Positions 22,456-46,657 of a stretch of 64,000 nt of DNA are shown here, one piece after another. Each line of letters opens with the position of its first letter. Position 1 is the stretch's first letter. This DNA comes from Candidatus Hydrogenedens sp. GTDB lineage: Bacteria > Hydrogenedentota > Hydrogenedentia > Hydrogenedentales > Hydrogenedentaceae. Position numbers and translations under genes: made by a program. Under the pieces are notes generated by a model. That model was given only the letters and a program-made list of their open reading frames with translations, searched no databases and was not told the origin of the DNA. The stretch spans positions 32,001-96,000 of the forward strand of contig JBMFRC010000011.1 in the NCBI GenBank assembly GCA_049968235.1, in the 5' to 3' direction.

Positions 22456-25400
22456 TTACTTAAGCCCACCACAATAACCATCCTCTTCTTCAGGACATAT
22501 TCTGTAACCACCCATGTTAAAGAACTGTATTAACCGCAATAATTCATTAAGGCCAATACGCCAATCTTGTGGAGCATAATCGCTGGTATGCGGTGGACAA
22601 TTGTGGAATGAATCATTTCTTCCAGGGGCATATCCATCTTCTGTCGAACCTTCACAATGATACCCAAAGGAGTTAAATAGTTGAATAACGCGAAGTAGTT
22701 CTCCTATTTCAAATTTCCAATTAAAGTTTCTATCCGCAGAATGTATTCCATGTGGGATTTCTCCTTCTGGCGTGCCTTCCGCAACACCTTCGGGTATGCC
22801 CTCTGGTGTCCCTTCTACAATACCTTCTGGCTGTCCCTCGGGTATGCCTTCTGGCGTGCCTTCCACAACACCTTCGGGTATGCCCTCTGGGGTTCCTTCA
22901 ACGATACCTTCCGGTGTCCCTTCTACAACACCTTCTGGCTGTCCCTCGAGGACACCTTCGGCTGTACCTTCTAAGACACCTTCCGGTGTCCCTTCCGCAA
23001 CGCCTTCGGGTTGTCCTTCCGGTATCCCTTCTGCAACACCTTCCGGTTGTCCTTCGGGTGTGCCTTCAACGACGCCTTCTGGGGTACCTTCTACGATACC
23101 CTCCGGTTGTCCTTCGGGTATGCCTTCGGGAGAGCCTTCTACTGTTCCTTCACCTTCAGGAGAAGGTAAGAAATCGGAGCAGTCAAGAACGCCATTATCA
23201 TTCTTATCTGCAACATCAAACTGGTCTTGTGTAATTTTTGAACTCAAAGCACGCACTTCCGTTAGAGTTAATTCATTATCACCATTCGAATCGAGTTTGG
23301 GTAGCAAATTAAATATGGAACTTACTGCTGTAAATTCTTCAAAAGTTAATTGATTATCCCTGTTCTTATCTACCAGATACCATACGCCAGCAATAATTAT
23401 ATCACTCCAACCTGTCAGGGATTTAAATTCGCTTTTTGATAACAAACCATCGCCATTGGTATCTCCAAATAGGAGCATAATCAGGAAATAATGTTCAATA
23501 TCATCAATATCACAGGTAGGAGGTTCCCCTTCTATAACACCTTCCGGGATGCCTTCAGGAGTACCCTCAACTATACCTTCACCTTCAGGTATACCTTCAG
23601 GAATACCCTCTTGTGTCCCCTCTGGTGTACCTTCCGGGGTGCCTTCCGGGGTGCCTTCAGGTGTTCCCTCTGGTGTGCCTTCCGGGGTACCTTCAACTAC
23701 ACCTTCGCCTTCAGGCAATACAAAGTCATTGCAATCAAGAACACCGTTTTGATTTAAATCCACTGCATTTAACTGGTCCATAGTTATATTGGAATTCAGG
23801 TTTTGCAATTCTATAAGCGTAAGGGCACCATCGTTATTTCCATCTAATCCTGGCAACAGGTTATACAACCACTCCACCTTAGAGAACTCTTCAAGAGATA
23901 ACTGATTATCTCCATTCGTATCAACGGCACTCCATAATAATAGGACAGTATCACTCCAACCTGTAATGGCTTTAAGTTCTTCTTTAGATAATAATCCATT
24001 CCCATCTGTGTCGCCGAACATAATCAAGATATAGTAGTAATGTGTAATATCATCAATATCACAGGGTGGTTCACCTTCAAAAGTCCCCGGACAAGGTGGA
24101 CAACCACCACCGTTCAGGGTCTGATTAATATCCAGTGCAGAAAGAATAAAGGTATCTATATCCGTAGGTGCAAATACATAGGCTTTATACTCACCTATAT
24201 TACAGACTTCATCAAAATCCGGGTCACCGGCGGAAGCAAGGTATTGTCCTGCGGTTAAATCATATCCGTTTAATGTGAATGTGCCCCAGAACATTAATGT
24301 ATCAATCACATTCACAATAGAATTGATAAACGATTGTTCACCTGTAGTAAGGACCCCAGCAACAACATTGATAAATGTTGTGTTCGAGAAAATCGTGCTT
24401 AATAATGGAATAGAATCCCATTTGCTTTGAGCCACAACACGATTATTCATATATGCGTTTTTCACACAGCAGAAAATAGGCAATTCCGGATGTGCAAGAA
24501 TATAATCTAACAATCTTGCCTGTGCAACATCATACATACCATTACCATCTATATCCGCTGTATCGGGATTTACGCTAAGGAAAGAAGCAATGCCATATAA
24601 ACTGCGTAATGCTGTTTCAAACCCCGCATTTACTGCAGTTTGATTGCAGTTATCCCAGCACCATTCAGCATAACAAGATTCTGGAAGTGGACCCATAATA
24701 TCGATGCAGTCGAGATAGCCATTGCCATCAATATCATGTTGATTAAATTGGTCTTGTGTAATTTTGGAACTCAATTGCCTTATTTCAGTTAAAGTTACCT
24801 GATTGTCGCCATTCGAATCGAGGTTTGCAGGTAAAAGTCCACCCAAACGATTGCTGGCTACAAATTCGTCAAAGGACATAAAACCATCACCGTTTTTATC
24901 AATTATCCACCATCCTAAATCTAAAAGGAACCCTGTTACAAAGGCTTTTAATTCATTTTTTGTTAACTTACCATCACCATTTGTATCACCAAACATTATT
25001 AACAATGCGAAATAGTTTTCATCAGAACGCATATTACAGGGAGGTGGACCTCCACCTTCGCCTTCACCTTCAACGGTTCCTTCTGCCCCACATGCGGGAC
25101 AACCACCATAATAATCTGTAATACTACTATTAATAGCCGCATTCACAAATGCATCAAAGTCCGCAGGTGTGTTCACAACCCATGCTTTGTATTCACCAAT
25201 ATTGCAGACACCGTCCAAATCCGCATCACCTTTGGCATTCAGATAAACAATATTTGAGCCATCCAATTCTAATAAGGAAAGGTCGGGTAAGTTAGGAATT
25301 ATCCAATTCAACGCTGATAGAATAGTATTAATAATTGCTGTGTTCCCCATTGTTGCCAGTGCTGCGAAGAAGGTTTTCATACCTTCAAGGTCTGGTGGCG

Positions 25401-25824
25401 TTCCTAAATAGGATGGCCAGCCTGTCTGTATGGCAAGTGCTAACGCTTCCACTTTCAAACGATTGCCTGCATACGCCCAATATATACAATTACGAGTGGG
25501 TATCCCACCAATTAATGAAAAACTTCCCATAATTGTATCGAATAAACGTGCCTGGGCAGTATCTTTCATTCCATCAAAATCTAAATCAAGATTATCTGGA
25601 TTTCCTCCAATTAATGGGATTTTCGCATATAATTCCCGCATTGAATTTTCAAAACTTTCAGTATATACAGGACCGGGTATTAAATTATTGCAATTAGGAA
25701 TATTGCAATAATCCACTTCTGCATCTGTTTGTGCAACTGATGAAGAAGAAAAAACAAAACATACACTCATGATAAGGAACAAAGTTCCTATGTATATTTT
25801 GCTTGTATTAATCTTAATGTTCAT
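22456..25824 (-). CDS. Secreted multi-module Ca-binding protein: 2x ~220-aa domain, 3x calmodulin-like four-EF-hand modules, (xPEG)n linkers, duplicated C-terminal motif
   Basis: Signal peptide. Canonical EF-hand loops (DTNGDGKLTKNE, DKNGDGFMSFDE, DSNGDNQVTLTE, DIDGNGYLDC) repeat in three ~150-aa modules. Long (G/V/I/Q/T)PEG runs. C-terminal tandem ELLRVIQLFNSFGYHC / ELLRLIQFFNMGGYRIC. Confidence 0.6.
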   Translation of the reverse strand: MNIKINTSKIYIGTLFLIMSVCFVFSSSSVAQTDAEVDYCNIPNCNNLIPGPVYTESFENSMRELYAKIPLIGGNPDNLDLDFDGMKDTAQARLFDTIMGSFSLIGGIPTRNCIYWAYAGNRLKVEALALAIQTGWPSYLGTPPDLEGMKTFFAALATMGNTAIINTILSALNWIIPNLPDLSLLELDGSNIVYLNAKGDADLDGVCNIGEYKAWVVNTPADFDAFVNAAINSSITDYYGGCPACGAEGTVEGEGEGGGPPPCNMRSDENYFALLIMFGDTNGDGKLTKNELKAFVTGFLLDLGWWIIDKNGDGFMSFDEFVASNRLGGLLPANLDSNGDNQVTLTEIRQLSSKITQDQFNQHDIDGNGYLDCIDIMGPLPESCYAEWCWDNCNQTAVNAGFETALRSLYGIASFLSVNPDTADIDGNGMYDVAQARLLDYILAHPELPIFCCVKNAYMNNRVVAQSKWDSIPLLSTIFSNTTFINVVAGVLTTGEQSFINSIVNVIDTLMFWGTFTLNGYDLTAGQYLASAGDPDFDEVCNIGEYKAYVFAPTDIDTFILSALDINQTLNGGGCPPCPGTFEGEPPCDIDDITHYYYILIMFGDTDGNGLLSKEELKAITGWSDTVLLLWSAVDTNGDNQLSLEEFSKVEWLYNLLPGLDGNNDGALTLIELQNLNSNITMDQLNAVDLNQNGVLDCNDFVLPEGEGVVEGTPEGTPEGTPEGTPEGTPEGTPEGTQEGIPEGIPEGEGIVEGTPEGIPEGVIEGEPPTCDIDDIEHYFLIMLLFGDTNGDGLLSKSEFKSLTGWSDIIIAGVWYLVDKNRDNQLTFEEFTAVSSIFNLLPKLDSNGDNELTLTEVRALSSKITQDQFDVADKNDNGVLDCSDFLPSPEGEGTVEGSPEGIPEGQPEGIVEGTPEGVVEGTPEGQPEGVAEGIPEGQPEGVAEGTPEGVLEGTAEGVLEGQPEGVVEGTPEGIVEGTPEGIPEGVVEGTPEGIPEGQPEGIVEGTPEGIPEGVAEGTPEGEIPHGIHSADRNFNWKFEIGELLRVIQLFNSFGYHCEGSTEDGYAPGRNDSFHNCPPHTSDYAPQDWRIGLNELLRLIQFFNMGGYRICPEEEDGYCGGLK
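22760..23165 (-). repeat. 12-bp periodic in-frame tandem repeat encoding (xPEG)n, ~34 units
   Basis: Near-perfect 12-nt periodicity (ccttc[t/c]gg[n][t/g][t/g][n]c) is visible directly. It creates spurious long antisense ORFs. Confidence 0.8.
23530..23715 (-). repeat. Second 12-bp periodic (xPEG)n coding repeat block
   Basis: Same 12-nt unit encoding EGTPEGTPEGTPEG... Confidence 0.8.
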
Positions 25825-32863: not shown

Positions 32864-32885
32864 ATTATAAAATATGTATCCATCC

Positions 32886-32916
32886 AATAAATCGGAGTTT
32901 GCAACTCCGATTTATT
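32886..32916 (+). terminator. Rho-independent terminator
   Basis: AATAAATCGGAGTT / AACTCCGATTTATT stem followed by GTTTTT. Confidence 0.6.
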
Positions 32917-33008
32917 GTTTTTATACCAAATTTTCATGCTTATGATCTTTTTATGTTAAAATATATTTGGTATTATTTTATCTAATACATAAAGCAAGGA
33001 TATTTTGG

Positions 33009-36000
33009 ATGAAAGATTTATCTCTAATTTATAAGATGATAGGTAAAAAAAATTCGTATTCTTTTCTTTTTTCATTATTAATTTTTTTCTTTTTATTTAT
33101 TTGTTCGGGATTTTCAGAAGTAAATACGGGGCAAAAAACCGTAGAAAAACAGGGGATATTAAACATTACTCAAAGTCTCTCACAAAATCCGGATTGTGCT
33201 ATAGATTCTTTTCTTGATGTAACTGTTGAGTTAACATACACAGGAGAAGACCCCCTACTCACATTAGGTCTAAGGGAAATAGTGCCAGAAGGACTTGTTT
33301 ACGAAGAGATTATAAGTGGTTCCGCACCTCCACTCCAACCTTCAAGAGGGGCTTTTGGAACCTTAGAATTTGGTTGGATTTTTGTTCCCTCTTTTCCAGC
33401 CTCTTTTACGTTTCGTTTAAGATTTGCACAACCTATTAGTGGTAATCAATTTATTACAGGAATTGGTATTTTTGCATCATTTGGAGACCCTCAGGAAACT
33501 GAACCTGTCATTTCCTACTTTGACTGTCCAACTATTGAAGGTCAAACCGAAGGAGAAGGGATAGTCGAAGGTGAGGGGCAAATTGAAGGAGAGGGAATAA
33601 TCGAAGGAGAAGGGAGCATAGAAACAGTATATTTAAATATATCATCAAAATCAGGAGATATATATGCTCCCGAACAAGAAATGGAATTTGAAGTTAATAT
33701 TTCGTATTTAAATCCTCTGGAAATCACTGCCTTAGGAGCAACGGTATTTTTGCCTGAGTATTGGCAATTTGTTAAATTTACTGCGGGTTCTCCTCCGCCT
33801 ATTTATTATTTCGATACGGAAACAGGGAAAGCAGAATTTGCATGGATATTTCTTCCATCTGGAGGAATTACTTTTTCCTTTTCTGTCCTTGTTTCGCCTG
33901 AAACAGAGGGTATTCAGGAAATATCCGGTTATGGGATATATAGAACAACGGGAGAACCAATCACCACAACTATTTCGAAAATATATTTAACACCTGTCCC
34001 CAAACCAGACCTTACTTTGCTTTCGGGAATAGTTACACCGTCAAACCCTTTTTCCCAGGGGATTATATCAATTAACTACACGGCAAAGAATACAGGTTTT
34101 GTAAATATTGACAACAAAAGTTGGAGTGATTGTTTTTACTTATCTAATGATGAATGGCTTGATGAAACAGATGTTGAAATAACCTGTATCACCAATAATA
34201 CTTCTGTTGCGGTTGGCGGACAATATTCAAATTCATTAAAAGCAAAATTACCTTCTTCTGCATTTGGAAATATGTATCTTCTTGCTTACCTAAATAAGAC
34301 AAAGACTATTTATGAAGAATCAAGGGACAATAATGTTGGGGTTATAGGAATTATTCAAATACAAGCCAGAGAATATGATTTTCGACTAACTACAGGTATA
34401 ACAGAAGAGGATGTAGGCACACCTATTCCTATCAAAATATATGCGTATAATCCTGAAACCCTACAACCTGCTGTAAATAAACAAATCGTTTTGCAAATTG
34501 CTCATCGAGGATTCTCAAAAACTTACACTTTCACTACTGACCAGAATGGGGAAATAAATTATACATATTTCCCTATATCCAACACAGAAGGAGGGATATA
34601 TAGCATATCTATCAGAGACCCAAGGGAAGAAGATTATCCTATTACTGAAGAAGTCTTATTGCGAGGACTTGCGATAACCCCCTCCCACTATTTTCTTGAG
34701 GTTATACCTAACAAAACATATACCATTCCCTTTAATATTATCAATTTAGGGGATACGGAAGAAAAGCAATTATCATTCATGATAACAGGAATACCTCCTG
34801 ATTGGAATTATGATTATGTTATTCCTTCCTCAATACAGGGACAATCTAAAGAAACTTGTAAACTTATCCTTTATTCCAAGCCAACAACACAGAATAGCTT
34901 CCCTATAATGCTTAATTTACAAAGTAATTCAAAAACTCTTGCAACCGCTCAATATGATATTCTACCCAAACCCTATCAAACGGTAATAACATCTATTCCT
35001 GAAGAGGTTTCTTTACCTTTACTTCTCGAGAAAACTCAGTTTTATACGATAGAACTAAAAAATCAAGGAGGAAAAGATTCAGGACCCGCTCGAATACAAA
35101 TCGAACCTGAAAACCCGAATATTCATTTAGTTACTCCAAACACAGTTTACAATATTCCAGCAGGTTCAAGTTATTTCGTTTCATTACAGGTAGGAATCCC
35201 ATTTATAGAAATTCCAGAACCTATAGAGACATCCCTATCTATTCGTTTTGAATCGGGATTAAATGTGAGCATTCCTATAAAAGTTATTGAGGATACGACA
35301 AAAAGTTTAACAATAAATGTATTTAACAAATATACGAATGAAGCTATCCATAATGCTTCCGTTTCTATCGTTAGTGAAACAGGTATTCTTTCTACTTCTC
35401 AAATCAATAATGATGGAATAGTTGAAGTTAATAATCTACCTGAACCTCCTTTTTCTATTGTAATACTAAGTGAGGGATTTGAAAGCCAGACCTATTTTAT
35501 ATCAAATTTAAAGAGCAATCACGAAATGATTGATATTTATTTAGAACCGTTCTTATCTAAACAATTCTGGTCTTACACAATCGATAATAATCAGAAGCTA
35601 TATCTACTATCAGTATCCAATAGTTCTGCTCTTGAACCAGACAACACTTCTGTATTAACAATATCGCCAGGTTATATTCCTTTTATTACAACAGAAATAT
35701 CTCATAATTCTACACTTTCCATTACCAATCAAGGGATTAAACCTTTATATGATGTTTATTTATATCCATTCCAAACTGACTTATTAAATATACAGTATCC
35801 TGTTCAATACTTAGGAACAATAGAACCGCAATCTTCTGTTAATATTCCTGTCCTTTCACAGATATCAGAATCATTTGATTTTGATTCCTCGTGTTCTTCA
35901 TCGATCTTGACGGGTATCATTTTTTCGGAACAAACTAACAATTCGGATATATCCCAATTTATGGTAATGCCTTTATGGAATACAGAAGTTTTATGTCCGG

Positions 36001-39000
36001 ATTTTACTCCTATCTATGGGGATTTTTATCAAATAAATAGAATAAATCCTGATACAACCATTGTTCCAGTAAACATTCAAATATCCCTGCCAGATAATCA
36101 ATCCAATCAAAATGTACCTATTCTTTCCTACGCAACCGGGCAAATGACCTTAGCCACAGGAGAAATTCTACCCATTGTAATGAAAACTGCTACTCGGACA
36201 GGGCTTTATGAGCAAATAGATATTCAATGGCAAATTCATAATGCGGAAAACAATGAGGATATAACTTCTCTATTCCAGATATTTGAATTATCTAATTTTG
36301 AGAAAACAGATTTGTTTAATAATATAGAGAAAAAACAATGGTTACTTTATCCCTTGCATGAATTTTGGGAAAACCCGATATCGGAAATTCGATTATTCGC
36401 ACAAATTCATATTATTTCATTACTGGGGACATGGGATATATCCTCTCCCCCGCTACCTTTGAAGATTCTTTCACAACCTATACTTATGGAACATATATTT
36501 GCTCCTCAAATTCACGAATTGCAAATTTCTTCCAGTGCGGATAACTCAGGAGAAACGGTTCTACCTTTAGCGATTCTTATTTCTCCAACAGATAATATTA
36601 ATCTCCCTATAAAATTTGAATGGGAGAATATTCAATATTTACATGAAACAGGAAATATTGCTTCCTTATCCTTAATCCAAACGGCAATAAATGGAATAGG
36701 AACGCAATATCAACAAATCACATATAACAACATTTCTTTGCAGAAAGAAAAAACCAACTCTTATTTGTGGTACTTTTTATCTCCACCTCTTTCAAATAAA
36801 TGGCAGTTAGTTTCTCGATGGACTTACAAAGACAATAAGGGTACTCTTTTACCCCTTATTACCAGGGAACAATATCATGATTTACTGCATACTATTGAAG
36901 TTACAGGAGAAAATGCTTCAATAACAACTGGATTACTTAGTAATGATGATAATGATGAACAGAGAATACCTGATATTATCTATTTGCCGGATGGAAAAAC
37001 CTTAAGTATATCTACACCCTCCAATCCTATCTGGGTGTCTATAAATAATTCCCACAGAGAATATGGTATTGTCTATAGTTCTTCACAACAGTCTGATTAT
37101 GTTTATTTGCATTCCAATTTTCCGGAGGATGTTCCTGAAGATGCCGTTATCCTCCGTATCCTTAGAAGCGATTCAACTGTTATTCCATCTGCCAATTATT
37201 GGGTTAGTAAATCTATGAATATGAGTCATAAACATGACCCTGTAAAACCTTCCTTACATTTTGTTGATAAATCGGGCTACAACTCATATATTGTGGAATT
37301 TCAATCCGAATCGTTAGAGAATAAGCCTCCTATCGCTAATGCAGGAGAGGACATAACAAATGTATATCGTCCCTCATCTATAACTCTTGACGGGTCTGGG
37401 TCCTATGACCCGAATGGAGACCGAATTAATTATTCATGGCGTCTTATCAGCAAACCTCTTGAGAGTTTTGAATATCTAAGAAACGCAGATACAGCAAATC
37501 CCATTTTAATTCCAGACCTTCCCGGAACTTATATTGCACAACTTATTGTTTCTGATGGTTTTGCTCAAAGTGAACCCGATACGGTTGTTATTGAAGTTGT
37601 TAATCGTTTACCGGAGATTGTAATTAATGCTCAACAAAAAGCAAGACCTCGCGATATCGTTGTCTTAGATGCATCATCCGTAGTAGACCCTGATGGAGAT
37701 GAAATAGAATTTTTATGGAAACTGGCAACCAAACCCGATGGTAGTCGTGTATCACTACAGGGAGTTTTTAATAATACAATAACAATTACACCGGATGTAT
37801 TGGGTCAATATGAATTTATCTTATACATATCAGATGGCTTTGACAACTCATTTGCCCATTGGAAATTAGATGTTTACAACCATCTCCCTGAAATTGCAAT
37901 CGGGTTTCCACCGACTGTTTATTTAAATACAAATGTATCTATTTCTGCACGGGATACTTTTGATATTGACAACGACCCATTATCTTATCAATGGAGATTG
38001 GTTTCTGCACCGGTGGGAAGCAATACAATACTTAGTTCTTTTACTCAGCCCGAAACCAGTTTTGTATCCGATAAAAGAGGCACTTATACATTAAAACTTG
38101 AAGTTTTTGATACTTATGAAAAAACAGACAAGACAATTTCTTTACAATGTGTTAATAGGAAACCTCAAACAATTGTAAATCCCAGTGCTATTGAAGTTCC
38201 ACATGGTAAAACGGTTATTTTCGATGCTACGCAAAGTTCAGATTTAGATAATGACCCACTCACTTTTAATTGGGGACTTCTTTCCCGTCCTATATTAAGT
38301 AGTGCGGAAATTTATTTAATTCAAAACAATATAGCTGGGTTAAAAACAGACGCACCTGGAAAATATAGTGTAACCTTACAAATAAACGATGGATTTGAAT
38401 CGGGTGAGATAGTAATATCTCAAATCACAGCAACCAATAATCCTCCAGAGATACAATGTCCGGAACAACCTATTCCAGGTTCAGTAGGACAACCTTTAAC
38501 AATACTATTACCCGAAATAAATGACCCGGAACAGGACCCTATCACATATTCATGGGAAATTATTTCAAAACCAGTAGAAAGTATGATAGGTCTCATTAAC
38601 TCTGTAGAGCCTGCATTTACATTCACACCTGACCGTAAAGGAACTTATGAAATTCAAGTTATAATATCCGACGCATGGGGAGGTAATACATCTTGTGTTA
38701 TTACAACAGAAATTACCAATCAACGCCCTGTGGCGGTAATTCAATCCGAGACGCAGAGTTTTATAAATACTCCTGTATCTCTATCAGCAGAAAGTAGTTA
38801 TGACCCGGATGGGGATGTTATAAAAGATTATCAATGGACAATTATCAGCAAACCACAGGGAAGTTTTGCTCAATTGTCCAACCCTACAGGTGTTACAACA
38901 CAACTGATTCCTGACAAACACGGCAATTATCAGGTGCAACTTCAAATTTATGATGGTAATATGTGGAGTAATCCTGCCATAACAACAATCACCACGGAAA

Positions 39001-40826
39001 ACCGTCCACCTGTAATAACTGTCATTGCATCTGAATATCTTGAAATTGGGGCTTCTAATGTTTTAGATGCTTCTTTAAGTTATGACCCGGATGGAGATGA
39101 GCTTTCCTTTAACTGGAAACTTATCGATAAGCCCAAACAAAGTAAAACGGAATTAAATAGCGATAACGAATCTATTTGTTCCTTTATACCCGATTATCCA
39201 GGATACTATTCTATTGAATTACTTGTCTCAGACCCATATTCTTCTGTATCTCGTTCCGAAATCGTTCTCCGAACCTTTAATCTTCCACCGATAGCAATCA
39301 TATCTGCACCTCAAATAATAAAAGTGGGAGATGAAGTAGTATTAGATGGGACAAACAGTTATGACCCGGATGGAGATTTGATTACATACCAATGGCAATT
39401 ATCTTTTCGCCCTAATGATAGTCAAACTACTTTAAGTTCATTAACAGAACCTATAACACAATTGTATATTGATAAAGCGGGAACTTATACTATCGAACTT
39501 CAAGTCAACGATGGAAAAACGACATCGGATATAAGTACTATCTCCCTCTCAACAGGAAATGTTGCCCCTACTGCTGTCGTGGAAAAAGATAAAAATGCTG
39601 TTGTGGGAAGACCATGTTATCTCGATGCAAGCGCCAGTTTTGACCCTAATAACGATGAGTTAGTTTACATCTGGACATTCATATCCCGACCTGATGGAAG
39701 TCAGGCAGAAATTTTTGAAACGAATTCCCCCAATCCTTACTTCATACCCGATGTCGAAGGTAATTACGAAATACAATTAATTATTTCTGATGGGTACCTG
39801 TTTAGTAAACCTGTTGTTATCCGTATTAGTACCACAAACAATCCTCCAGTAGCACAATTAAAACAAGATGAGTTCCAAGTATATGTGGGGGATACTGTTA
39901 TTATTGACGGTTCAGATAGTTATGACATAGATAATACTTCTATTTACTATGAATGGATATTATTCTCAAAACCTGAAGATAGTAAACTCACAATTCAAAA
40001 TGCTGACCAACCTATTATTACATTAAACATAGACAAAAAAGGGTTCTATCAGGGAACTCTTGTTGTTAATGATGGATTTTTAAGAAGTAATATAGTAAAT
40101 TTCCAGATTACATGTATAAATCATCCTCCTATTGCTATTATCAAAGGACCTGAAACTGCATTTATTGGAGATACAATAACCCTGGATGGCTCGGATAGTT
40201 ACGATTCTGACATGGATGTATCTGAATTAGGGTATAAGTGGTCTATTGTTTCGATGCCAACAGGGAGTTCTGTTACACTGTTAAATCCAAACTTAAAAGT
40301 TATTAATTTTATGGTGGACATAGACGGAGTTTATGAATTTCAACTTATTGTAAATGACCAGGAAACCGATAGTAGCCCCGTAACTCACAAGATAATTACA
40401 ACCTGTAATAAACCTGCACATCCATCAGGGGTTTATGCAACCGATGGAATTTACCCTGACAGGATATTTATTTCATGGAATTCTTCACCGGGGGCTGTGG
40501 AATATCGTGTTTATAGAAATGATGAAGATAACCTTGCCTCTGCCGTCCCTATATCACCATGGACAGGTAACCTTTATTATGAAGACACAATAACTATAGA
40601 TGTTCCGGAACCCAGTAAAACTGCTTGTGGATGTTCTGCTAATTGCAATGAAATGTGCAATCCTCTGGAAACAACCATAACGAAATTTTATTGGGTCATT
40701 GCAAGAATTAATGAAAACTGCGTCAGCGAATTTAGTAATTCGGAAAGTGGTTCTATTACGGTTTCTTCTTCCAATCAAAAGTTACCGAACTTTATTTGCA
40801 ATATTTTAAGAATTTTCATGAAGTAA
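33009..40826 (+). CDS. Giant secreted/surface adhesin-like protein (2605 aa): signal peptide, (GEGxIEGEG)n linker, CARDB-like domain, long middle region, 11 tandem PKD-like ~93-aa repeats, C-terminal FN3-like domain
   Basis: Start at ATG 33009 ahead of a hydrophobic signal. EGEGIVEGEGQIEGEGIIEGEGSIE linker. CARDB-like segment LTLLSGIVTPSNPF...NTGFVNIDN...WSDCFYLSNDEWLD. Repeats share A.AG.D..........LDGS.S.DPDGD...Y.W..ISKP.GS. C-terminal Fn3-like GAVEYRVYRND. Confidence 0.75.
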   Translation: MKDLSLIYKMIGKKNSYSFLFSLLIFFFLFICSGFSEVNTGQKTVEKQGILNITQSLSQNPDCAIDSFLDVTVELTYTGEDPLLTLGLREIVPEGLVYEEIISGSAPPLQPSRGAFGTLEFGWIFVPSFPASFTFRLRFAQPISGNQFITGIGIFASFGDPQETEPVISYFDCPTIEGQTEGEGIVEGEGQIEGEGIIEGEGSIETVYLNISSKSGDIYAPEQEMEFEVNISYLNPLEITALGATVFLPEYWQFVKFTAGSPPPIYYFDTETGKAEFAWIFLPSGGITFSFSVLVSPETEGIQEISGYGIYRTTGEPITTTISKIYLTPVPKPDLTLLSGIVTPSNPFSQGIISINYTAKNTGFVNIDNKSWSDCFYLSNDEWLDETDVEITCITNNTSVAVGGQYSNSLKAKLPSSAFGNMYLLAYLNKTKTIYEESRDNNVGVIGIIQIQAREYDFRLTTGITEEDVGTPIPIKIYAYNPETLQPAVNKQIVLQIAHRGFSKTYTFTTDQNGEINYTYFPISNTEGGIYSISIRDPREEDYPITEEVLLRGLAITPSHYFLEVIPNKTYTIPFNIINLGDTEEKQLSFMITGIPPDWNYDYVIPSSIQGQSKETCKLILYSKPTTQNSFPIMLNLQSNSKTLATAQYDILPKPYQTVITSIPEEVSLPLLLEKTQFYTIELKNQGGKDSGPARIQIEPENPNIHLVTPNTVYNIPAGSSYFVSLQVGIPFIEIPEPIETSLSIRFESGLNVSIPIKVIEDTTKSLTINVFNKYTNEAIHNASVSIVSETGILSTSQINNDGIVEVNNLPEPPFSIVILSEGFESQTYFISNLKSNHEMIDIYLEPFLSKQFWSYTIDNNQKLYLLSVSNSSALEPDNTSVLTISPGYIPFITTEISHNSTLSITNQGIKPLYDVYLYPFQTDLLNIQYPVQYLGTIEPQSSVNIPVLSQISESFDFDSSCSSSILTGIIFSEQTNNSDISQFMVMPLWNTEVLCPDFTPIYGDFYQINRINPDTTIVPVNIQISLPDNQSNQNVPILSYATGQMTLATGEILPIVMKTATRTGLYEQIDIQWQIHNAENNEDITSLFQIFELSNFEKTDLFNNIEKKQWLLYPLHEFWENPISEIRLFAQIHIISLLGTWDISSPPLPLKILSQPILMEHIFAPQIHELQISSSADNSGETVLPLAILISPTDNINLPIKFEWENIQYLHETGNIASLSLIQTAINGIGTQYQQITYNNISLQKEKTNSYLWYFLSPPLSNKWQLVSRWTYKDNKGTLLPLITREQYHDLLHTIEVTGENASITTGLLSNDDNDEQRIPDIIYLPDGKTLSISTPSNPIWVSINNSHREYGIVYSSSQQSDYVYLHSNFPEDVPEDAVILRILRSDSTVIPSANYWVSKSMNMSHKHDPVKPSLHFVDKSGYNSYIVEFQSESLENKPPIANAGEDITNVYRPSSITLDGSGSYDPNGDRINYSWRLISKPLESFEYLRNADTANPILIPDLPGTYIAQLIVSDGFAQSEPDTVVIEVVNRLPEIVINAQQKARPRDIVVLDASSVVDPDGDEIEFLWKLATKPDGSRVSLQGVFNNTITITPDVLGQYEFILYISDGFDNSFAHWKLDVYNHLPEIAIGFPPTVYLNTNVSISARDTFDIDNDPLSYQWRLVSAPVGSNTILSSFTQPETSFVSDKRGTYTLKLEVFDTYEKTDKTISLQCVNRKPQTIVNPSAIEVPHGKTVIFDATQSSDLDNDPLTFNWGLLSRPILSSAEIYLIQNNIAGLKTDAPGKYSVTLQINDGFESGEIVISQITATNNPPEIQCPEQPIPGSVGQPLTILLPEINDPEQDPITYSWEIISKPVESMIGLINSVEPAFTFTPDRKGTYEIQVIISDAWGGNTSCVITTEITNQRPVAVIQSETQSFINTPVSLSAESSYDPDGDVIKDYQWTIISKPQGSFAQLSNPTGVTTQLIPDKHGNYQVQLQIYDGNMWSNPAITTITTENRPPVITVIASEYLEIGASNVLDASLSYDPDGDELSFNWKLIDKPKQSKTELNSDNESICSFIPDYPGYYSIELLVSDPYSSVSRSEIVLRTFNLPPIAIISAPQIIKVGDEVVLDGTNSYDPDGDLITYQWQLSFRPNDSQTTLSSLTEPITQLYIDKAGTYTIELQVNDGKTTSDISTISLSTGNVAPTAVVEKDKNAVVGRPCYLDASASFDPNNDELVYIWTFISRPDGSQAEIFETNSPNPYFIPDVEGNYEIQLIISDGYLFSKPVVIRISTTNNPPVAQLKQDEFQVYVGDTVIIDGSDSYDIDNTSIYYEWILFSKPEDSKLTIQNADQPIITLNIDKKGFYQGTLVVNDGFLRSNIVNFQITCINHPPIAIIKGPETAFIGDTITLDGSDSYDSDMDVSELGYKWSIVSMPTGSSVTLLNPNLKVINFMVDIDGVYEFQLIVNDQETDSSPVTHKIITTCNKPAHPSGVYATDGIYPDRIFISWNSSPGAVEYRVYRNDEDNLASAVPISPWTGNLYYEDTITIDVPEPSKTACGCSANCNEMCNPLETTITKFYWVIARINENCVSEFSNSESGSITVSSSNQKLPNFICNILRIFMK
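37320..40420 (+). repeat. Array of 11 diverged tandem ~280-bp units encoding PKD-like Ig-fold domains
   Basis: Protein-level periodicity read directly from the translation. The units are diverged at DNA level. Confidence 0.7.
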
Positions 40827-41204
40827 TTTTAGTTATAGAGAATTTGATAGGCTTATAGTCTATATATTTTGGTAATGCGATATTAATTTCAATATAAAAA
40901 ATGAGATGCAATAGATGAGTAAAAAGAGTCTGATATAATAGAAGAGATAATTCTATACTTTGCCTATAAATCAGCAGAAAATACATCTCTTCTGGAATTA
41001 ATTTCGAAGAACACGGATGGGATAAATGGGAAAAAAGTGTGTAGCAGGGAAAAATTTTTTAGGATATAGGTTAAAAAAAATTGTTCCTTTTATTTTTTGC
41101 AATGAGGTTTCTTTTATTGTTTATAATATAACTGTTAGATATTAAACTGTTTTAATAGAAGGTAAATTTATACGATTAAAGCAAGAGCAGGCAAAGGAAA
41201 CCTT

Positions 41205-41810
41205 TTGTTAGGTATCGGAGCCACATTAATTTTGCGATTATTGGGGTGGAGAGTACAGGGACCGCCTCCTCCCTATCCGAAATATGTTGTGATTTTTGCT
41301 CCCCATACATCAAACTGGGATGGATTGGTAGGGATTTTGTGTAGTTTTGCATTACGGGTTCGTGGAAACTGGCTGGGTAAAGGTTCATTATTCAAAGGTG
41401 TTTTTGGATGGTTTTTAAAAAAGATCGGAGGAATTCCTGTAGACCGTTCTACACCCAACCGATTCGTAGAACAGGCTGAAGAACTTTTTGAAGGAAATGA
41501 ACAGGTGGTCCTTGCAATTGCTCCTGAAGGGACAAGGGAATTCAGTAACCATTGGAAAAGTGGTTTTTATCATATCGCCTATCATTCCAGAGTTCCTATT
41601 GTTCTCGGATTCTGGGATTATAGGACCAAAAGAGTTGGAAATTCCGGTATTGCAGTAATGCCAACAGGAAATATTGAAGAAGATTTAAAGATTATTCGCG
41701 ACACATATAATCAATTTTTACCGAAATATCCTGAATGTAGAAGCCTTGTTCAGTTCAAAGACACACAAATCCTGCAAATAAACAAAGCATCCCAACAAGA
41801 CCGCAAATAA
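41205..41810 (+). CDS. PlsC-like lysophospholipid acyltransferase family protein
   Basis: HTSNWD matches the H(X)4D acyltransferase motif. PEGTRE matches the second conserved block. 201 aa. Confidence 0.6.
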   Translation: MLGIGATLILRLLGWRVQGPPPPYPKYVVIFAPHTSNWDGLVGILCSFALRVRGNWLGKGSLFKGVFGWFLKKIGGIPVDRSTPNRFVEQAEELFEGNEQVVLAIAPEGTREFSNHWKSGFYHIAYHSRVPIVLGFWDYRTKRVGNSGIAVMPTGNIEEDLKIIRDTYNQFLPKYPECRSLVQFKDTQILQINKASQQDRK

Positions 41811-41890
41811 AAATTTGTAAAATTGCTATCATTTTTGTAATATTACTCATAAACATAAAATTCAATAAAAACAATTAAAGGGTATGAGAT

Positions 41891-42691
41891 ATGGGAACAT
41901 TATCCTGTCCTTTCTGCAAAACAAAACAAGGTAATATTCAAAACGACATTAAAGCCTCGATTTACTTAAAGGCGGTATTACCAACTCTTGTTGACCTCGT
42001 TCAGTTAGATAAACCTGCAAAAGATTTAATTAACTCTGTAAACGAGAAGATACTCTTTTCGCTCCGAAATGGAGAAAAAACCTTTTTGAGGATTGAAAAT
42101 GGAGAGATTTTATATTCTCCTGAAAAAAAGGATAATCCAACTATCCATATTCTTCTTATAAGCCCGGAACATGCGGTTCAAGTTTTTGAACAAGGGAAAC
42201 TTCCTTTCTTATTAAAAGGTTTTACACGAATTTCTTTTCTTAAGAAAAATTTTGATGCTCTTACCAAACGATTGGAGTATTACTTAAAAGGTCCCCAAAG
42301 TTATACAGAAGAAGAGAAAAAAATATATGCGATACTTCAACTTAAAACCGCTCTTCGTTCTGCGGAAGTTCTTGCCGAAAAAGAGGAAGTATCTAAAAAG
42401 ATACTTGCAGGTACACCTGAGGGCATATTAAAAGTAGCCATAGAAAGCATTGATTTTGCTGTATATTTTGGGAAAGTAGACGGGAAATGGAGATATATAG
42501 ACCAACTATCGGGACAGAAATTTAATTCGGTATTAAGCTTAAAGGACCTTGAAACAACAGAACTTTTGCTTACAAACAAACTGGATACATTTGCAGGTTT
42601 AGGATTAGGGAAAATTCATATTTCCGGCATTATACCCATTATTGATAATGTAGGACTGGTTTTAGGGCGTATTACTCAATATATTTCTTAA
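41891..42691 (+). CDS. SCP2-like domain protein (paralog of 45878..46657)
   Basis: The N-terminal ~130 aa aligns with the downstream paralog: AVLP..., RNGE.T, F..GKL.LP..KGF...S.L. The GKL...KG pattern resembles the SCP2 sterol-carrier fold. Confidence 0.4.
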   Translation: MGTLSCPFCKTKQGNIQNDIKASIYLKAVLPTLVDLVQLDKPAKDLINSVNEKILFSLRNGEKTFLRIENGEILYSPEKKDNPTIHILLISPEHAVQVFEQGKLPFLLKGFTRISFLKKNFDALTKRLEYYLKGPQSYTEEEKKIYAILQLKTALRSAEVLAEKEEVSKKILAGTPEGILKVAIESIDFAVYFGKVDGKWRYIDQLSGQKFNSVLSLKDLETTELLLTNKLDTFAGLGLGKIHISGIIPIIDNVGLVLGRITQYIS

Positions 42692-42711
42692 ATCATAAAG
42701 GAGTTGTATTT

Positions 42712-43950
42712 ATGCAAGTTTTCAACTATACCGAAAATCAAAAATGGTTTGAAAGAGCAACTCGTGTTATTCCCTGTGGAGTATATGGACATTTCAGTCC
42801 TGCTCCATGTGTTCCGACGAATGCCTATCCTTTCTTTAGCACTCGTGCAGATGGTTGTAAATTCTGGGATGTAGATGGAAACGAATTTATTGATTACATG
42901 TGTGCTTATGGTCCTATGATTATGGGGTATCACAATCCTGTGGTAGATGAAGCATTTATAAAACAATTGAAACAAGCGGATGCAAATAGTATTGCTTCTA
43001 CCAAAATGGTGGAGTTGGCAGAGTTTTTAGTTGATTTAATTCCTGTAGCAGATTGGGCATTTTTTGCTAAGAATGGAGCGGATGTAACAAATTATGCAGT
43101 GATGATAGCACGGGCAGAAACAGGCAGGAAAAAAATTATTGCTATAAAGGGTGGGTATCATGGAACAGCACCCTGGATGCAGGGAATTGGTCATCCCGGG
43201 GTTACAGAAGAAGATGTAGTTAATGTCATTCGAATTCCATGGAATGACCTGAAAGCATTGGAACAAGCACTGGAAGAAAACTATGGACAGGTTGCTGGCT
43301 TTATTTCTTCTCCATATCATCACCCTGTATTTACAGATAATGAGTATCCTGCAGAAGGTTACTGGGATGGTGTTCAGAAGTTATTAAAGAAACATGGTGT
43401 TGTTTTAATCTGCGATGATGTTCGTGCAGGTTTTCGACTTCATTTAGGGGGTTCTAACGAATATTTTAAGTTCAAACCTGACCTGATATGTTTTTGTAAA
43501 GCTATTGCCAATGGCTATCCGATATCTGCACTTGTGGGCAAAGAAGAATTAAAAGTAACAGCATCGAAGGTATTTCATACCGGCAGTTATTGGTATTCTG
43601 CTGCATTTATGTCTGCTGCCATAGCCAACCTTAATGAATTAAAAAGACTAAAGGCACCGGAATATCTGGAACAATTGGGGAACAAATTTAATGAAGGACT
43701 AATTAAATTAGCAAGAGATTATGGATTTAATTTGAAAGTTACAGGGCATCCTGCAATGGCATATTATCGGATTACAGATGACCCGAGTTTACAACTTCAT
43801 CAAAGATGGTGTGCGGAATGCACACGACGGGGTGCTTTTTTCACTTCACACCACAATTGGTTCTTATCGATGGCGCACACGGATGCGGACATTCAAAAAA
43901 CATGGGAAATTTGCGAGGAAGCATTTAAGGTAATAAAATCATCTATATAA
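42712..43950 (+). CDS. Class-III (HemL/GSA-aminomutase-like) PLP-dependent aminotransferase
   Basis: KIIAIKGGYHGTAPW matches the GxYHG signature. DDVRAGFR PLP-binding region. 412 aa. Confidence 0.8.
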   Translation: MQVFNYTENQKWFERATRVIPCGVYGHFSPAPCVPTNAYPFFSTRADGCKFWDVDGNEFIDYMCAYGPMIMGYHNPVVDEAFIKQLKQADANSIASTKMVELAEFLVDLIPVADWAFFAKNGADVTNYAVMIARAETGRKKIIAIKGGYHGTAPWMQGIGHPGVTEEDVVNVIRIPWNDLKALEQALEENYGQVAGFISSPYHHPVFTDNEYPAEGYWDGVQKLLKKHGVVLICDDVRAGFRLHLGGSNEYFKFKPDLICFCKAIANGYPISALVGKEELKVTASKVFHTGSYWYSAAFMSAAIANLNELKRLKAPEYLEQLGNKFNEGLIKLARDYGFNLKVTGHPAMAYYRITDDPSLQLHQRWCAECTRRGAFFTSHHNWFLSMAHTDADIQKTWEICEEAFKVIKSSI

Positions 43951-43982
43951 TATTAAAAAGATTTGTAGAGGAGTAATCAATT

Positions 43983-44828
43983 ATGCCCTTAACAGAACTG
44001 GAACACAAAGAACTTAAAACTATTGCAAAAAAGATAAGAAAGGACATTGTAGATGTTACCCATTGGTCAGGAGGAAGTCATATCGGTGGGTCTTTAAGCA
44101 TGGTGGATTTTATGGTTGTTCTTTACTGGAAATATATGCGAATAGATCCTAAAAATCCATCGTGGGAAGACAGAGACCGTCTGGTATTGAGTAAAGGACA
44201 TGGAGGTGTAGGACATGCTGTTATCCTTGCAAATCGTGGTTATTTTGATTTTGAACTATTAAAAGAATTCAATCAATTTGGTTCTGCTTTTGGTATGCAT
44301 TTAGATTCTAAAAAAGCCACCGGAGTTGAAGCCTCTACGGGTTCTATGGGGCATGGTCTTTCTCAGGCACTGGGCATGGCTTTAGGAGCCCGGGTATTAA
44401 AAAAAGATTGGAAAATTTACGCCGTTATTGGTGATGGTGAGTGTAATGAAGGTTCCATCTGGGAGTCAGCTATGGCTGCAAGTCATTATAAGACTGGCAA
44501 CCTTATTGGCTTTTTAGACCGTAACCATATGATGATTGATGGACCCACGGAGTCGGTTATGAGTCTGGAACCCATTGATAAGAAATGGGAAGCATTCGGT
44601 TGGTATACACAGGTCATTAATGGCCATGATATGTCCCAGATATGCGATGCCATTGATAAAGCACTCGCTTATAACGAAGGACCTTCCATGATTATATGTG
44701 ATACTATCAAAGGCAAAGGTGTCGATTTCATGGAAAACAATCCGGCATGGCATTATGGCGGACTTAATGCTGAACAAGCGGAAAAAGCAAAACTTTCTAT
44801 AGATAAAATGTATCCAGATGTCTCATAA
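43983..44828 (+). CDS. Transketolase, N-terminal (thiamine-diphosphate-binding) subunit
   Basis: GHGGVGHAVILANRGYF and the GDG(X)n-N TPP-binding motif IGDGECNEGSIWE. 281 aa is typical of split transketolases. Confidence 0.85.
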   Translation: MPLTELEHKELKTIAKKIRKDIVDVTHWSGGSHIGGSLSMVDFMVVLYWKYMRIDPKNPSWEDRDRLVLSKGHGGVGHAVILANRGYFDFELLKEFNQFGSAFGMHLDSKKATGVEASTGSMGHGLSQALGMALGARVLKKDWKIYAVIGDGECNEGSIWESAMAASHYKTGNLIGFLDRNHMMIDGPTESVMSLEPIDKKWEAFGWYTQVINGHDMSQICDAIDKALAYNEGPSMIICDTIKGKGVDFMENNPAWHYGGLNAEQAEKAKLSIDKMYPDVS

Positions 44829-44861
44829 AAATTAACCCATTATATTGATAGGAGAAGTAAT

Positions 44862-45878
44862 ATGAGCCCTGTGGGAGGTTTAACATGGACGGTATATGAT
44901 GCCGACAAAATGACCCAAGCAGAAACATACGGACTTGTTTTAAGTGAATTGGGGAAAATAAACCCCAAAATAGTAGGTCTTTCCGCAGACTTAGCCAAGT
45001 CCACTAAAATTGGGAAGTTTGGAGAGAAATTTCCAGAGCGTTTTTTTAATTTAGGTATAGCGGAACAAAATATGTTTGGTGTAGCGGCAGGTTTAGCTAA
45101 AGTAGGACTTTTACCTTTTGTCTCTACATTTTCAGTTTTTGCATCCATGCGTGCAGTAGAATTTTTAAGAACTGATATTTGCTATCAGAATTTAAATGTA
45201 AAAATTATAGCAACGCATGGTGGAACCTCCTTTGGTTCTGCGGGGACAACGCACCATTCTATAGAAGACCTTTCTATTATCCGTGCTATCCCTAATATAC
45301 AACTTATTGTGCCTGCAGATGCGGTTGAAACAGCATTAGCGGTTCAGGCATGTGTGGAAGTTGAAGGTCCTGTATATATACGAATTGGACGCAGTTTCGA
45401 ACCTCGTGTGTATCAAACAGACCAATACGGGTTTCAAATTGGTAAAGCGGTAGAAATGAAATCTGGCACAGATGTAACGGTTATAGCTTGTGGTGCAGTT
45501 GTTTACCATGCTGTAGAAGCGGCGAATATCCTGGAACGGGAAGATGGTATATCGGTTCGCGTCTTAAATATGCACACCATCAAACCCATTGACCGTGAAG
45601 CCATTTTGAAAGCACTTATGGAAACACGAAGGATTGTTACTTTTGAAGACCATAATGTTATTGGTGGTTTAGGTAGTGCGGTAAGTGAAGTAATTGCAGA
45701 AAGTGGGAAATCGTGTGCATTTACTAAGGTAGGGATACCCGACCAGTTCACACCTCACGGTTATCCTGAGGATTTGATGCATTATTATAAAATTGATACA
45801 GATGGTATTGTAGAAAAGGTTAGAGAATTGCTTGGAAAGGAATTTGAAAAAGAAGAAGACTGGGAGGATGAATACTAA
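44862..45878 (+). CDS. Transketolase, C-terminal (pyrimidine-binding) subunit
   Basis: FNLGIAEQNMFGVAAGLA and the C-terminal transketolase domain. 338 aa. Its stop overlaps the next start as TAATG. Confidence 0.85.
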   Translation: MSPVGGLTWTVYDADKMTQAETYGLVLSELGKINPKIVGLSADLAKSTKIGKFGEKFPERFFNLGIAEQNMFGVAAGLAKVGLLPFVSTFSVFASMRAVEFLRTDICYQNLNVKIIATHGGTSFGSAGTTHHSIEDLSIIRAIPNIQLIVPADAVETALAVQACVEVEGPVYIRIGRSFEPRVYQTDQYGFQIGKAVEMKSGTDVTVIACGAVVYHAVEAANILEREDGISVRVLNMHTIKPIDREAILKALMETRRIVTFEDHNVIGGLGSAVSEVIAESGKSCAFTKVGIPDQFTPHGYPEDLMHYYKIDTDGIVEKVRELLGKEFEKEEDWEDEY

Positions 45879-46657
45879 TGGTGGAAAATGAAAAGGATAT
45901 TTTAATTTCAAAAATCATCTTACGAGCGGTTCTACCTGTTATAAAGGTATTATTAGAAGACCATCCTGCATTTCAGAAACGGTTTAAGGATGTTCAAGGC
46001 ACGGTTCAATTTACAGCCCGAAATGGGGAACAAACCGCTGGAGCCTGTATAAAATTTGATAAGTTAAATTTTGAAATATCTTATGAATTGTTAGAAAAAC
46101 CGGATATAAGTTTTCATTTTAGTTCATTGAAAAAGATGAATGATTTTTTTACAGGCAAATTAGTTTTACCTAAAATTAAAGGGTTTAAAAATTTCTCTTT
46201 ACTGTGGAGAATGTTTAGTGTTCTTTTGAAATTAAAATTACTTATGCCGGATGCCAGGCCTAAAAATCCGGTCGATAAAAGAATTAAAGTTAAAATGACT
46301 TTATACATGGTGTCAACTGCTTTAAGTCAGTTAAACAAATCCGGTGATGTTGATATGGTCAAGTGGACATCAAAACAGCCGGAACGAATATATCAGTGGT
46401 CCGTAGATAACGAAGATATTGCATGCTGGCTGAAAATCAAAGCGGGACAATCCAAAGCAGGAAGGGGGTATTATACTTTACGAAAGCCGTTTGTCCACAT
46501 GCGTTTTCCGGATATAGACTCTGCGATACCTGTATTAACAAACTCCGTAGATACGGTTCAAGCCATGGCACAGGGCTTACTAATCACGGAAGGTTCCCCG
46601 GAGTATGCAGCAAAGTTGGGTGATTTTATGTTAAAAATAGCCGAATTGCTAACATAA
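45878..46657 (+). CDS. SCP2-like domain protein (paralog of 41891..42691)
   Basis: Aligns with the upstream paralog across the N-terminal half. Translationally coupled to the transketolase C subunit. Confidence 0.4.
   Translation: MVENEKDILISKIILRAVLPVIKVLLEDHPAFQKRFKDVQGTVQFTARNGEQTAGACIKFDKLNFEISYELLEKPDISFHFSSLKKMNDFFTGKLVLPKIKGFKNFSLLWRMFSVLLKLKLLMPDARPKNPVDKRIKVKMTLYMVSTALSQLNKSGDVDMVKWTSKQPERIYQWSVDNEDIACWLKIKAGQSKAGRGYYTLRKPFVHMRFPDIDSAIPVLTNSVDTVQAMAQGLLITEGSPEYAAKLGDFMLKIAELLT

Follow-up and report, generated by a model that had tools for sequence, protein, structure and literature searches.

The window analysed here is a 64,000-nucleotide (nt) stretch of Candidatus Hydrogenedens sp. 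(GenBank assembly GCA_049968235.1, contig JBMFRC010000011.1, positions 32,001 to 96,000). A giant gene on its forward strand encodes a 280-kDa protein of 2605 amino acids (aa), which we take, with a probability of roughly 0.6, to be exported by the Sec pathway and to form a rod-like fibre of the fibrillar-adhesin type at the cell surface. The mature chain would consist of about 25 beta-sandwich domains, 11 of the PKD type and about 13 others. In order, these would be a pair of NEW3/CLIPPER-like domains separated by a flexible acidic GEG linker, a CARDB domain, an immunoglobulin (Ig)-like block of ~980 aa, a stalk of 11 PKD domains and an FN3-like domain, followed by a short conserved Cys-containing tail. 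Coordinates are listed in Table 1.

A first-pass annotation, made by a model from the letters of the DNA, had already described an apparently secreted giant surface-type protein with a signal peptide, a GEG linker, a CARDB-like segment and eleven PKD-like repeats, lacking a transmembrane or C-terminal sorting signal. These features were recovered by the profile, hydropathy and self-comparison analyses described below. Its view that such proteins typify PVC-like bacteria was not borne out, since NCBI taxonomy places the phylum of Candidatus Hydrogenedens within the FCB group. Nor is the protein unannotated, as an identical one is deposited as 'MAG: PKD domain-containing protein, partial [Candidatus Hydrogenedens sp.]' with a length of 2420 aa.

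Evidence for a proposed fibrillar-adhesin-type surface fibre

Fibrillar adhesins are long, fast-evolving proteins with a rod-like repetitive stalk, and about half of the known cases have no recognisable anchor (PMC9210967). PKD_4 is among the stalk domains listed for them (PMC9210967). The window protein combines large size with a tandem-repeat stalk and shares with the adhesins described by Monzon, Bateman and colleagues (PMC9210967) a very long, secreted, fast-evolving chain, a stalk of tandem Ig-like domains and an unannotated N-terminal region distal to the presumed anchor. It differs from them in lacking a recognised adhesive domain or anchor, and its host is an environmental, non-host-associated member of the FCB group rather than a Firmicute or Actinobacterium. 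The export signal is accompanied by no other hydrophobic segment in the protein, and no enzymatic domain or catalytic motif was found by Pfam, NCBIfam and motif scans.

Surface location, orientation, extended length and adhesive function are what we infer from this domain content. The C-terminal end would keep the protein at the cell envelope, its tail docking to an envelope partner in the Hydrogenedens lineage. Carried outward over roughly 100 nm by the PKD and Ig-like stalk, the N-terminal pair would bind a ligand presented by other cells, by the matrix of a floc or biofilm, or by an insoluble substrate. The N-terminus is placed distally and the C-terminus proximally because four distant relatives (P0013, P0164, P0035 and P0075) end in a transmembrane helix and an Arg cluster.

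Several points weigh against a surface adhesin. No known adhesive (ligand-binding) domain was detected in the Pfam and NCBIfam scans, and searches for LPxTG, transmembrane helices and NCBIfam sorting domains returned no cell-surface anchor or secretion signal. Because no such signal was found, surface attachment is an assumption, and the periplasm or the surrounding medium would be other possible destinations of the protein. A functional module other than an Ig-like domain could also hide at residues ~1155–1320, because the structural model is unreliable there (pLDDT, the per-residue model confidence, below 50).

The PKD stalk

Tile-wise self-BLAST and manual delineation gave 11 units of 87–98 aa each. 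The array scored 223 bits with K319L-like_PKD (PF22352, cutoff 27), 190 bits with PKD_4 (PF18911, cutoff 27) and 119 bits with PKD (PF00801, cutoff 23.5). These scores lie far above the cutoffs. A D-x-D-x-D motif is present in seven of the 11 repeats, and Ca2+ binding at these motifs is possible.

The units carry the same D-P-D-G-D ... Y-x-W ... G-x-Y signature as the K319L-like and other bacterial PKD domains (PF22352, PF18911, PF00801) of secreted proteases, chitinases and myxosortase-dependent M36 peptidases. Unlike those PKD-bearing hydrolases and M36 peptidases, the window protein has neither an attached catalytic domain nor a MYXO-CTERM signal. The NCBIfam matches obtained (myxosortase-dependent M36, MalA and others) reflect PKD-rich tails only and fall far below their cutoffs; the PKD-rich C-terminal part of NF038112 aligned at 308 bits, against a cutoff of 1500 bits.

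Each of the 11 units aligned one-to-one with its counterpart in the two orthologs described below, and 10 of the 11 alignments were free of gaps even at 36% identity. As read from these alignments, stalk length is fixed rather than variable. Within the window protein the units are only ~30–45% identical to one another. Tandem Repeats Finder reported the 18-nt period of the GEG linker and, besides it, just three short tracts; it detected no long-period tandem DNA repeat across the PKD-coding region. Assembly collapse of the PKD repeats is therefore unlikely, the repeats being too divergent at the DNA level.

The N-terminal region

The putative signal peptide comprises a basic KK, the hydrophobic core YSFLFSLLIFFFLFI and then CSGFS, with cleavage judged to fall before EV. 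Residues ~14–38 contain the sole strongly hydrophobic 19-mer of the protein. The idea of a lipoprotein was discarded, since LFIC does not form a canonical lipobox and orthologs P0002 and P0011 lack the Cys.

Self-BLAST identified residues 69–164 and 225–320 as a duplicated domain of ~100 aa (E about 1e-10; unit ~103 aa), the two copies of which flank the GEG linker. This duplication had been missed in the first-pass annotation. The linker (residues 177–204) is rich in Glu (25%), Gly (22%) and Ile (17%) and is encoded by 3.8 copies of an 18-nt period at 33548–33615. Its length differs among orthologs, being longer in P0002 and P0010, so that the second N-domain of P0010 begins at residue 234 as against 217. 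The CARDB domain that follows matched PF07705 at 30.2 bits (gathering cutoff 22.7) over residues 332–443 and profile positions 1–98 of 101.

Neither N-domain copy of the window protein matched a Pfam family, DUF11 and NPCBM_assoc included. An iterated search with a hidden Markov model (HMM) showed that related giant proteins carry the domain as two to five tandem N-terminal copies. Among 31 such copies, weak NPCBM_assoc (NEW3) matches were obtained for 19 and weak DUF11 matches for 11, the best DUF11 E-value being 1.9e-4. Only P45 and G103 are invariant across the 31 copies, with L38, P59, F73, P79 and Y107 nearly so. The isopeptide residues of CLIPPER (DUF11, PF01345) have been described, together with a crystal structure, 9IFR (PMC12617251). 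Across the 31 copies, Lys, Asn and Asp occupy no invariant or nearly invariant column, and a CLIPPER-type isopeptide bond is probably absent from these domains for that reason. Compared with CLIPPER and with NPCBM_assoc-NEW3 (PF10633), the window domains match neither Pfam model; they also differ from CLIPPER in lacking a conserved Lys-Asn pair and catalytic Asp/Glu, and in lying at the N-terminal tip instead of forming a stalk.

The predicted structure of copy 2 is a CnaA-like nine-strand sandwich of the kind seen in CLIPPER/DUF11. Its best matches in the fold search were pilins and adhesins, with pilin and CLIPPER structures outscoring cohesin, and the fold is generic. Profile-profile comparison linked the N-domain weakly to the second sandwich of the middle region.

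The middle region

Residues 450–1432 form a region of 983 aa, shorter than the ~1100 aa first proposed, that is rich in Ile (11.9%), Ser (10.3%), Leu (9.2%), Thr (7.8%) and Asn (7.4%). The earlier observation that it has no obvious repeats held, as BLAST detected no internal sequence repeat. No Pfam family was assigned to it; the single sub-threshold match was CarboxypepD_reg at residues 770–836 (30.2 bits, slightly below the cutoff of 32.3).

An exhaustive HMMER scan covering 1.84 billion cluster representatives established the distribution of the region: 390 proteins reached E <= 1e-3, and 158 of them E <= 1e-10. Most of these are giants of 2000–7900 aa that align over only the first ~500 residues with 20–25% identity. 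The first ~500 aa are a module common to at least 390 clusters of giant proteins. In the homologues this module is usually preceded by a CARDB domain and gives weak signals for Big_1/filamin, NPCBM_assoc, CarboxypepD_reg and SdrD_B. By comparison with them, the five domains predicted in the first half are one filamin/Big_1-like, two NEW3-like, one CarboxypepD_reg (prealbumin)-like and one further domain. Four proteins (P0010–P0013) align over the entire 983 aa, and the second half was matched at full length only in these closer relatives. The last part of the region contains an invariant motif, HDL...N..D..R.PD......G, which reads HDLLH ... SNDDNDEQRIPDIIYLPDG in the window protein.

The 80%-identical ortholog (P0010/P0160), which exhaustive HMMER recovered, escaped a word-indexed protein search. 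This search also gave no matches for the C-terminal domain and two marginal ones for the N-domain profile, and its negatives are no evidence of absence. Because of this leakage, conclusions on distribution rest on exhaustive HMMER and local HMM iteration.

AlphaFold2 modelled the region from five sequences with a mean pLDDT of 64. The model is all-beta; its residues 1–500 form confident sandwiches, and the unreliable part mentioned above corresponds to model residues 706–870. A check of beta-helix against beta-sandwich, suggested in the first-pass annotation, accordingly favours the latter in the model, and the prediction for the region is a string of Ig-like beta-sandwiches. Foldseek searches with the 983-aa model returned strings of Ig and macroglobulin (MG) domains (central-apparatus chains, alpha-2-macroglobulins) at TM-scores of about 0.1; no specific homologue can be named because these matches are generic. 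A sequence-profile search of the PDB returned Filamin-B alone (E = 0.47).

The C-terminal domain and tail

The section spanning residues 2466–2605 contains CGCSANCNEMCN. The last 141 residues weakly matched the PDB entry 3mpc, an 'Fn3-like protein' (E = 0.028, single sequence), and a profile of seven homologues matched it at E = 0.004; the profile match covers the first ~60 residues, and a second segment is weak. For fn3, Pfam gave no family at E <= 10 with the window domain and none at E <= 1 with any of the seven homologous domains. In the alignment, the Cys-rich stretch sits between the N-terminal strands and a conserved 'YYWV.AR...C' segment that aligns weakly to the later part of 3mpc. 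Since this segment comes after it, the stretch looks like an insertion within the domain. The FN3-like character proposed at first therefore stands on the weak 3mpc match and not on a Pfam assignment, and the supposed Cys-rich tail is better placed inside the domain.

Only three cysteines are invariant, C2466, C2540 (the first Cys of CGC) and C2571. The domain is probably disulfide-stabilised, and the three residues fit an oxidising extracytoplasmic compartment. The actual tail is LPNFICNILRIFMK, which corresponds to LPESICNILRIFVK and FWEFICKLIRFFSR in the orthologs. It is kept down to 36% identity and is too short for a transmembrane helix.

The C-terminal 141 aa gave no Pfam or NCBIfam match and contain neither a hydrophobic stretch nor LPxTG. 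Features of PEP-CTERM, MYXO-CTERM, GlyGly-CTERM, IPTL-CTERM, T9SS CTD, LPXTG and Por_Secre_tail signals were not detected. Two candidates were rejected: 'VPEP' (2532–2535) as a PEP-CTERM, which is absent in the 80% ortholog and has no transmembrane helix after it, and 'CGCS' as a MYXO-CTERM, which is not followed by a transmembrane helix or Arg cluster and matched no NCBIfam sorting domain.

In P0013, P0164, P0035 and P0075 the equivalent domain is followed by an extra domain of ~250 aa and then by 'GD', a transmembrane helix and an Arg cluster. This ending resembles exosortase- or rhombosortase-type signals, matched no NCBIfam model and may be an undescribed sorting signal. None of the curated sorting-signal models matched either the short tail or the transmembrane-Arg ending.

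A broader reading joins two proposals. The tail, (F/S)IC(N/K)(I/L)(L/I)R(I/F)F..(K/R), would be a new attachment or sorting signal that replaced an ancestral anchor, namely the domain, 'GD', transmembrane helix and Arg cluster of the relatives. The ~980-aa block after CARDB, with its HDL motif, and the Cys-containing FN3-like domain would together be the core of a widespread giant surface-protein family. Its basis is the sharing of the first ~500 aa by at least 390 clusters and of the whole block by at least four deeply divergent lineages. Taken jointly, these proposals are something of a long shot.

Conservation, synteny and selection

Comparison with related genomes, which the first-pass annotation had recommended, yielded two syntenic full-length orthologs by genome scan. 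The first, from Ca. Hydrogenedens terephthalaticus (AWNW01000003.1, P0160, 2623 aa), is 80% identical end to end; the second, from Ca. Hydrogenedentota bacterium SKW61 (MCX8064573.1, P0011, 2561 aa), is 36% identical. Both are collinear with the window protein, with 11 PKD repeats, an equal C-terminal domain and tail and matching flanking genes. They differ from it only by sequence divergence and by the length of the GEG linker, and their sole label is 'PKD domain-containing protein'. The conserved gene order is oxidoreductase, giant gene, acyltransferase, orf266, aminotransferase, split transketolase and SCP2-like gene.

The ratio of nonsynonymous to synonymous substitution rates (dN/dS), computed against the terephthalaticus ortholog, was 0.143 for the giant gene, 0.108 for orf266 and 0.008–0.05 for the other six of its seven neighbours, which are of housekeeping type. 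By region the ratio ranged from 0.045 to 0.26, lowest in the N-domains (0.045–0.083, with copy 2 at 0.045) and highest in CARDB (0.26). Judged by these ratios, the gene is functional and under purifying selection in every region, yet fast-evolving.

A 65%-identical homologue in GCA_964387125.1 (CAYLVQ010000043.1) has an in-frame TAA at ~8119–8121, opposite a CAA codon of the window (Gln, about residue 1950). Beyond the TAA the reading frame of the homologue continues up to a 121-N gap, which is followed by the conserved C-terminus. The interruption reflects a sequencing or assembly error, or else a recent pseudogene. The earlier worry that such a giant open reading frame (ORF) might be interrupted is thus realistic elsewhere, though it does not apply to the window gene.

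Alternative explanations

Surface-layer-type proteins of archaea and bacteria commonly contain CARDB, NEW3 and PKD domains, which raises the alternative of a structural envelope protein, a surface-layer (S-layer) or sheath-like lattice or an envelope spacer whose Ig-like domains self-associate into a surface layer. The fixed number of 11 PKD repeats at 36% identity would suit a structural ruler, no adhesive domain was found, and the three conserved cysteines and the tail could mediate self- or partner association. Against this, Pfam and NCBIfam scans returned no SLH or other S-layer anchoring or lattice family, a chain of 2605 aa is long for an S-layer lattice, the tip domain finds its best fold matches in pilins and adhesins, and the strong constraint on the N-terminal pair fits a binding tip better than a uniform lattice. 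Such a protein is considered unlikely. Still less credence is given to a scaffold or substrate-binding protein of the cellulosome-like kind, in which cohesin-like N-domains would recruit Ca2+-dependent partners of the dockerin or EF-hand kind, or PKD domains would bind insoluble polymers. An 1122-aa EF-hand protein with similar EG-rich linkers is encoded 7 kb upstream, some secreted hydrolases attach to insoluble substrates through their PKD domains, and the PKD repeats of the giant protein match the C-terminal model of the cellulose-binding protein Sde0182. The Sde0182 match, however, is limited to the first ~37 profile positions, the shared PKD motif, and the cohesin similarity is that of a generic nine-strand sandwich. 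Pfam Cohesin and Dockerin matched neither the giant protein nor the EF-hand protein, the EF-hand gene lies on the opposite strand with sigma-54, H+-PPase, RNase III and oxidoreductase genes intervening, and there is no adjacent carbohydrate-active enzyme gene.

Foldseek also matched the middle region to alpha-2-macroglobulins, TEP1, complement C3/C5 and CD109 at E = 1e-10 to 1e-12, and one homologue gave a faint bMG3 match, as would be expected of a protease trap or other thioester-type defence protein built of MG domains. The TM-scores of ~0.1 indicate nothing beyond a generic MG/Ig sandwich, and no significant alpha-2-macroglobulin Pfam domain was found. A C[GLA]EQ scan located the CxEQ thioester motif nowhere in the protein, and the middle-region model is almost free of helices, which leaves no room for an alpha-helical thioester domain. 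This alternative was rejected for want of both the motif and the helical domain, and is almost certainly wrong. A chimeric or mis-assembled ORF, or a decaying pseudogene, is highly improbable as well. A giant repeat gene from a metagenome-type assembly invites that suspicion, as do the partial length of the identical public copy and the interrupted homologue in GCA_964387125.1. The ORF nonetheless runs without interruption for 7.8 kb in a genome that is AT-rich, it is matched end to end by two independent, collinear full-length orthologs with conserved synteny, all regions show purifying selection, and the repeats are too divergent to collapse. The fibrillar-adhesin-type fibre accordingly remains the favoured reading.

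Implications

The analysis yields a full domain map for a protein known in databases only as PKD domain-containing, and its practical value is modest. The protein fits a well-known class of surface proteins and has close uncharacterised orthologs, and it will be no surprise to specialists. The favoured reading would give Candidatus Hydrogenedens a giant surface fibre. This uncultivated lineage comes from anaerobic bioreactors, and the closest relative here is a terephthalate-reactor organism. Cell-cell or cell-floc attachment in such reactors may matter for syntrophy. Searches of the literature returned nothing on giant, PKD or adhesion proteins of Hydrogenedentota. Three recurrent pieces have no curated model, namely the NEW3/CLIPPER-like N-domain, the ~500-aa module after CARDB and the Cys-bearing FN3-like domain with its tail. 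Apart from the tail, they occur in many giant proteins, and they are of some interest for domain curation.

Gene boundaries and local signals

The frame is open from 32967 to 40826 in the six-frame ORF list of the window and forms its largest ORF, as had been noted; the runner-up encodes 1122 aa. The coding sequence begins at the first ATG of the frame (33009) and ends with TAA at 40824–40826. Transcription of the giant gene separately from the upstream GFO/IDH/MocA oxidoreductase gene is suggested by the terminator-like hairpin that closes the latter (Table 1).

Table 1 Features of the giant gene and its product, with window positions.
Feature	Residues	Position	Strand	Basis or remark
Intrinsic-terminator-like hairpin, 15 bp stem and T run		32885..32917	+	Closes upstream GFO/IDH/MocA oxidoreductase gene
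Shine-Dalgarno-like AAGGA		32996..33000	+	8 nt 5' of ATG 33009, read from sequence
Complete coding sequence, stop included	1-2605	33009..40826	+	ORF list, translation, full-length orthologs, dN/dS
Putative signal peptide	1-37	33009..33119	+	Hydropathy scan, ortholog N-termini; cleavage site judged by eye
N-domain copy 1, NEW3/CLIPPER(DUF11)-like 9-stranded beta-sandwich	46-176	33144..33536	+	Self-BLAST, HMM iteration
Acidic (E-G-E-G-I/V)n linker	177-204	33537..33620	+	Composition, tandem-repeat scan
N-domain copy 2, CnaA/CLIPPER/cohesin-like sandwich	205-331	33621..34001	+	AlphaFold2, pLDDT 95.4
CARDB	332-449	34002..34355	+	Pfam PF07705
Middle region, first half, five predicted beta-sandwich domains	450-950	34356..35858	+	HMMER, AlphaFold2, Foldseek
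Middle region, second half, all-beta	951-1432	35859..37304	+	Lower model confidence, no Pfam family
Eleven tandem PKD-type (K319L-like) domains	1433-2465	37305..40403	+	Pfam, tile-wise self-BLAST, manual delineation
FN3-like domain with inserted Cys-rich loop	2466-2591	40404..40781	+	Profile match, 7-sequence alignment
Conserved 14-aa C-terminal tail		40782..40823	+	Ortholog alignment

The giant gene is followed by an AT-rich non-coding gap of 378 nt (40827–41204). A consensus scan of this gap detected no terminator-like hairpin, and the Rfam scan of the whole window placed no RNA family in it. Rfam and tRNA scans of the whole window returned no RNA genes.

Neighbouring genes

Beyond the gap, a block at 41205–46657 (+) encodes an acyltransferase, orf266, a class-III aminotransferase, a transketolase split into N- and C-terminal halves and an SCP2-like protein. 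No Pfam family was found for orf266. The block is syntenic in Ca. H. terephthalaticus and Hydrogenedentota SKW61 and may represent a lipid or cofactor pathway.

The 1122-aa EF-hand protein (22456–25824, -) is secreted and contains three EF-hand-type Ca2+ modules (Pfam EF-hand_1, 99 bits), very long acidic (EGTP/EGxPEG)n linkers resembling the GEG linker, and two C-terminal 'ELLRxIQxFNxxGYxC' motifs. Two further large, envelope-related proteins are encoded in the window, an 898-aa WbsX-like glycosyltransferase or GH99-like protein at 19609–22305 (-) and an 849-aa DUF2339 membrane protein at 51688–54237 (+).

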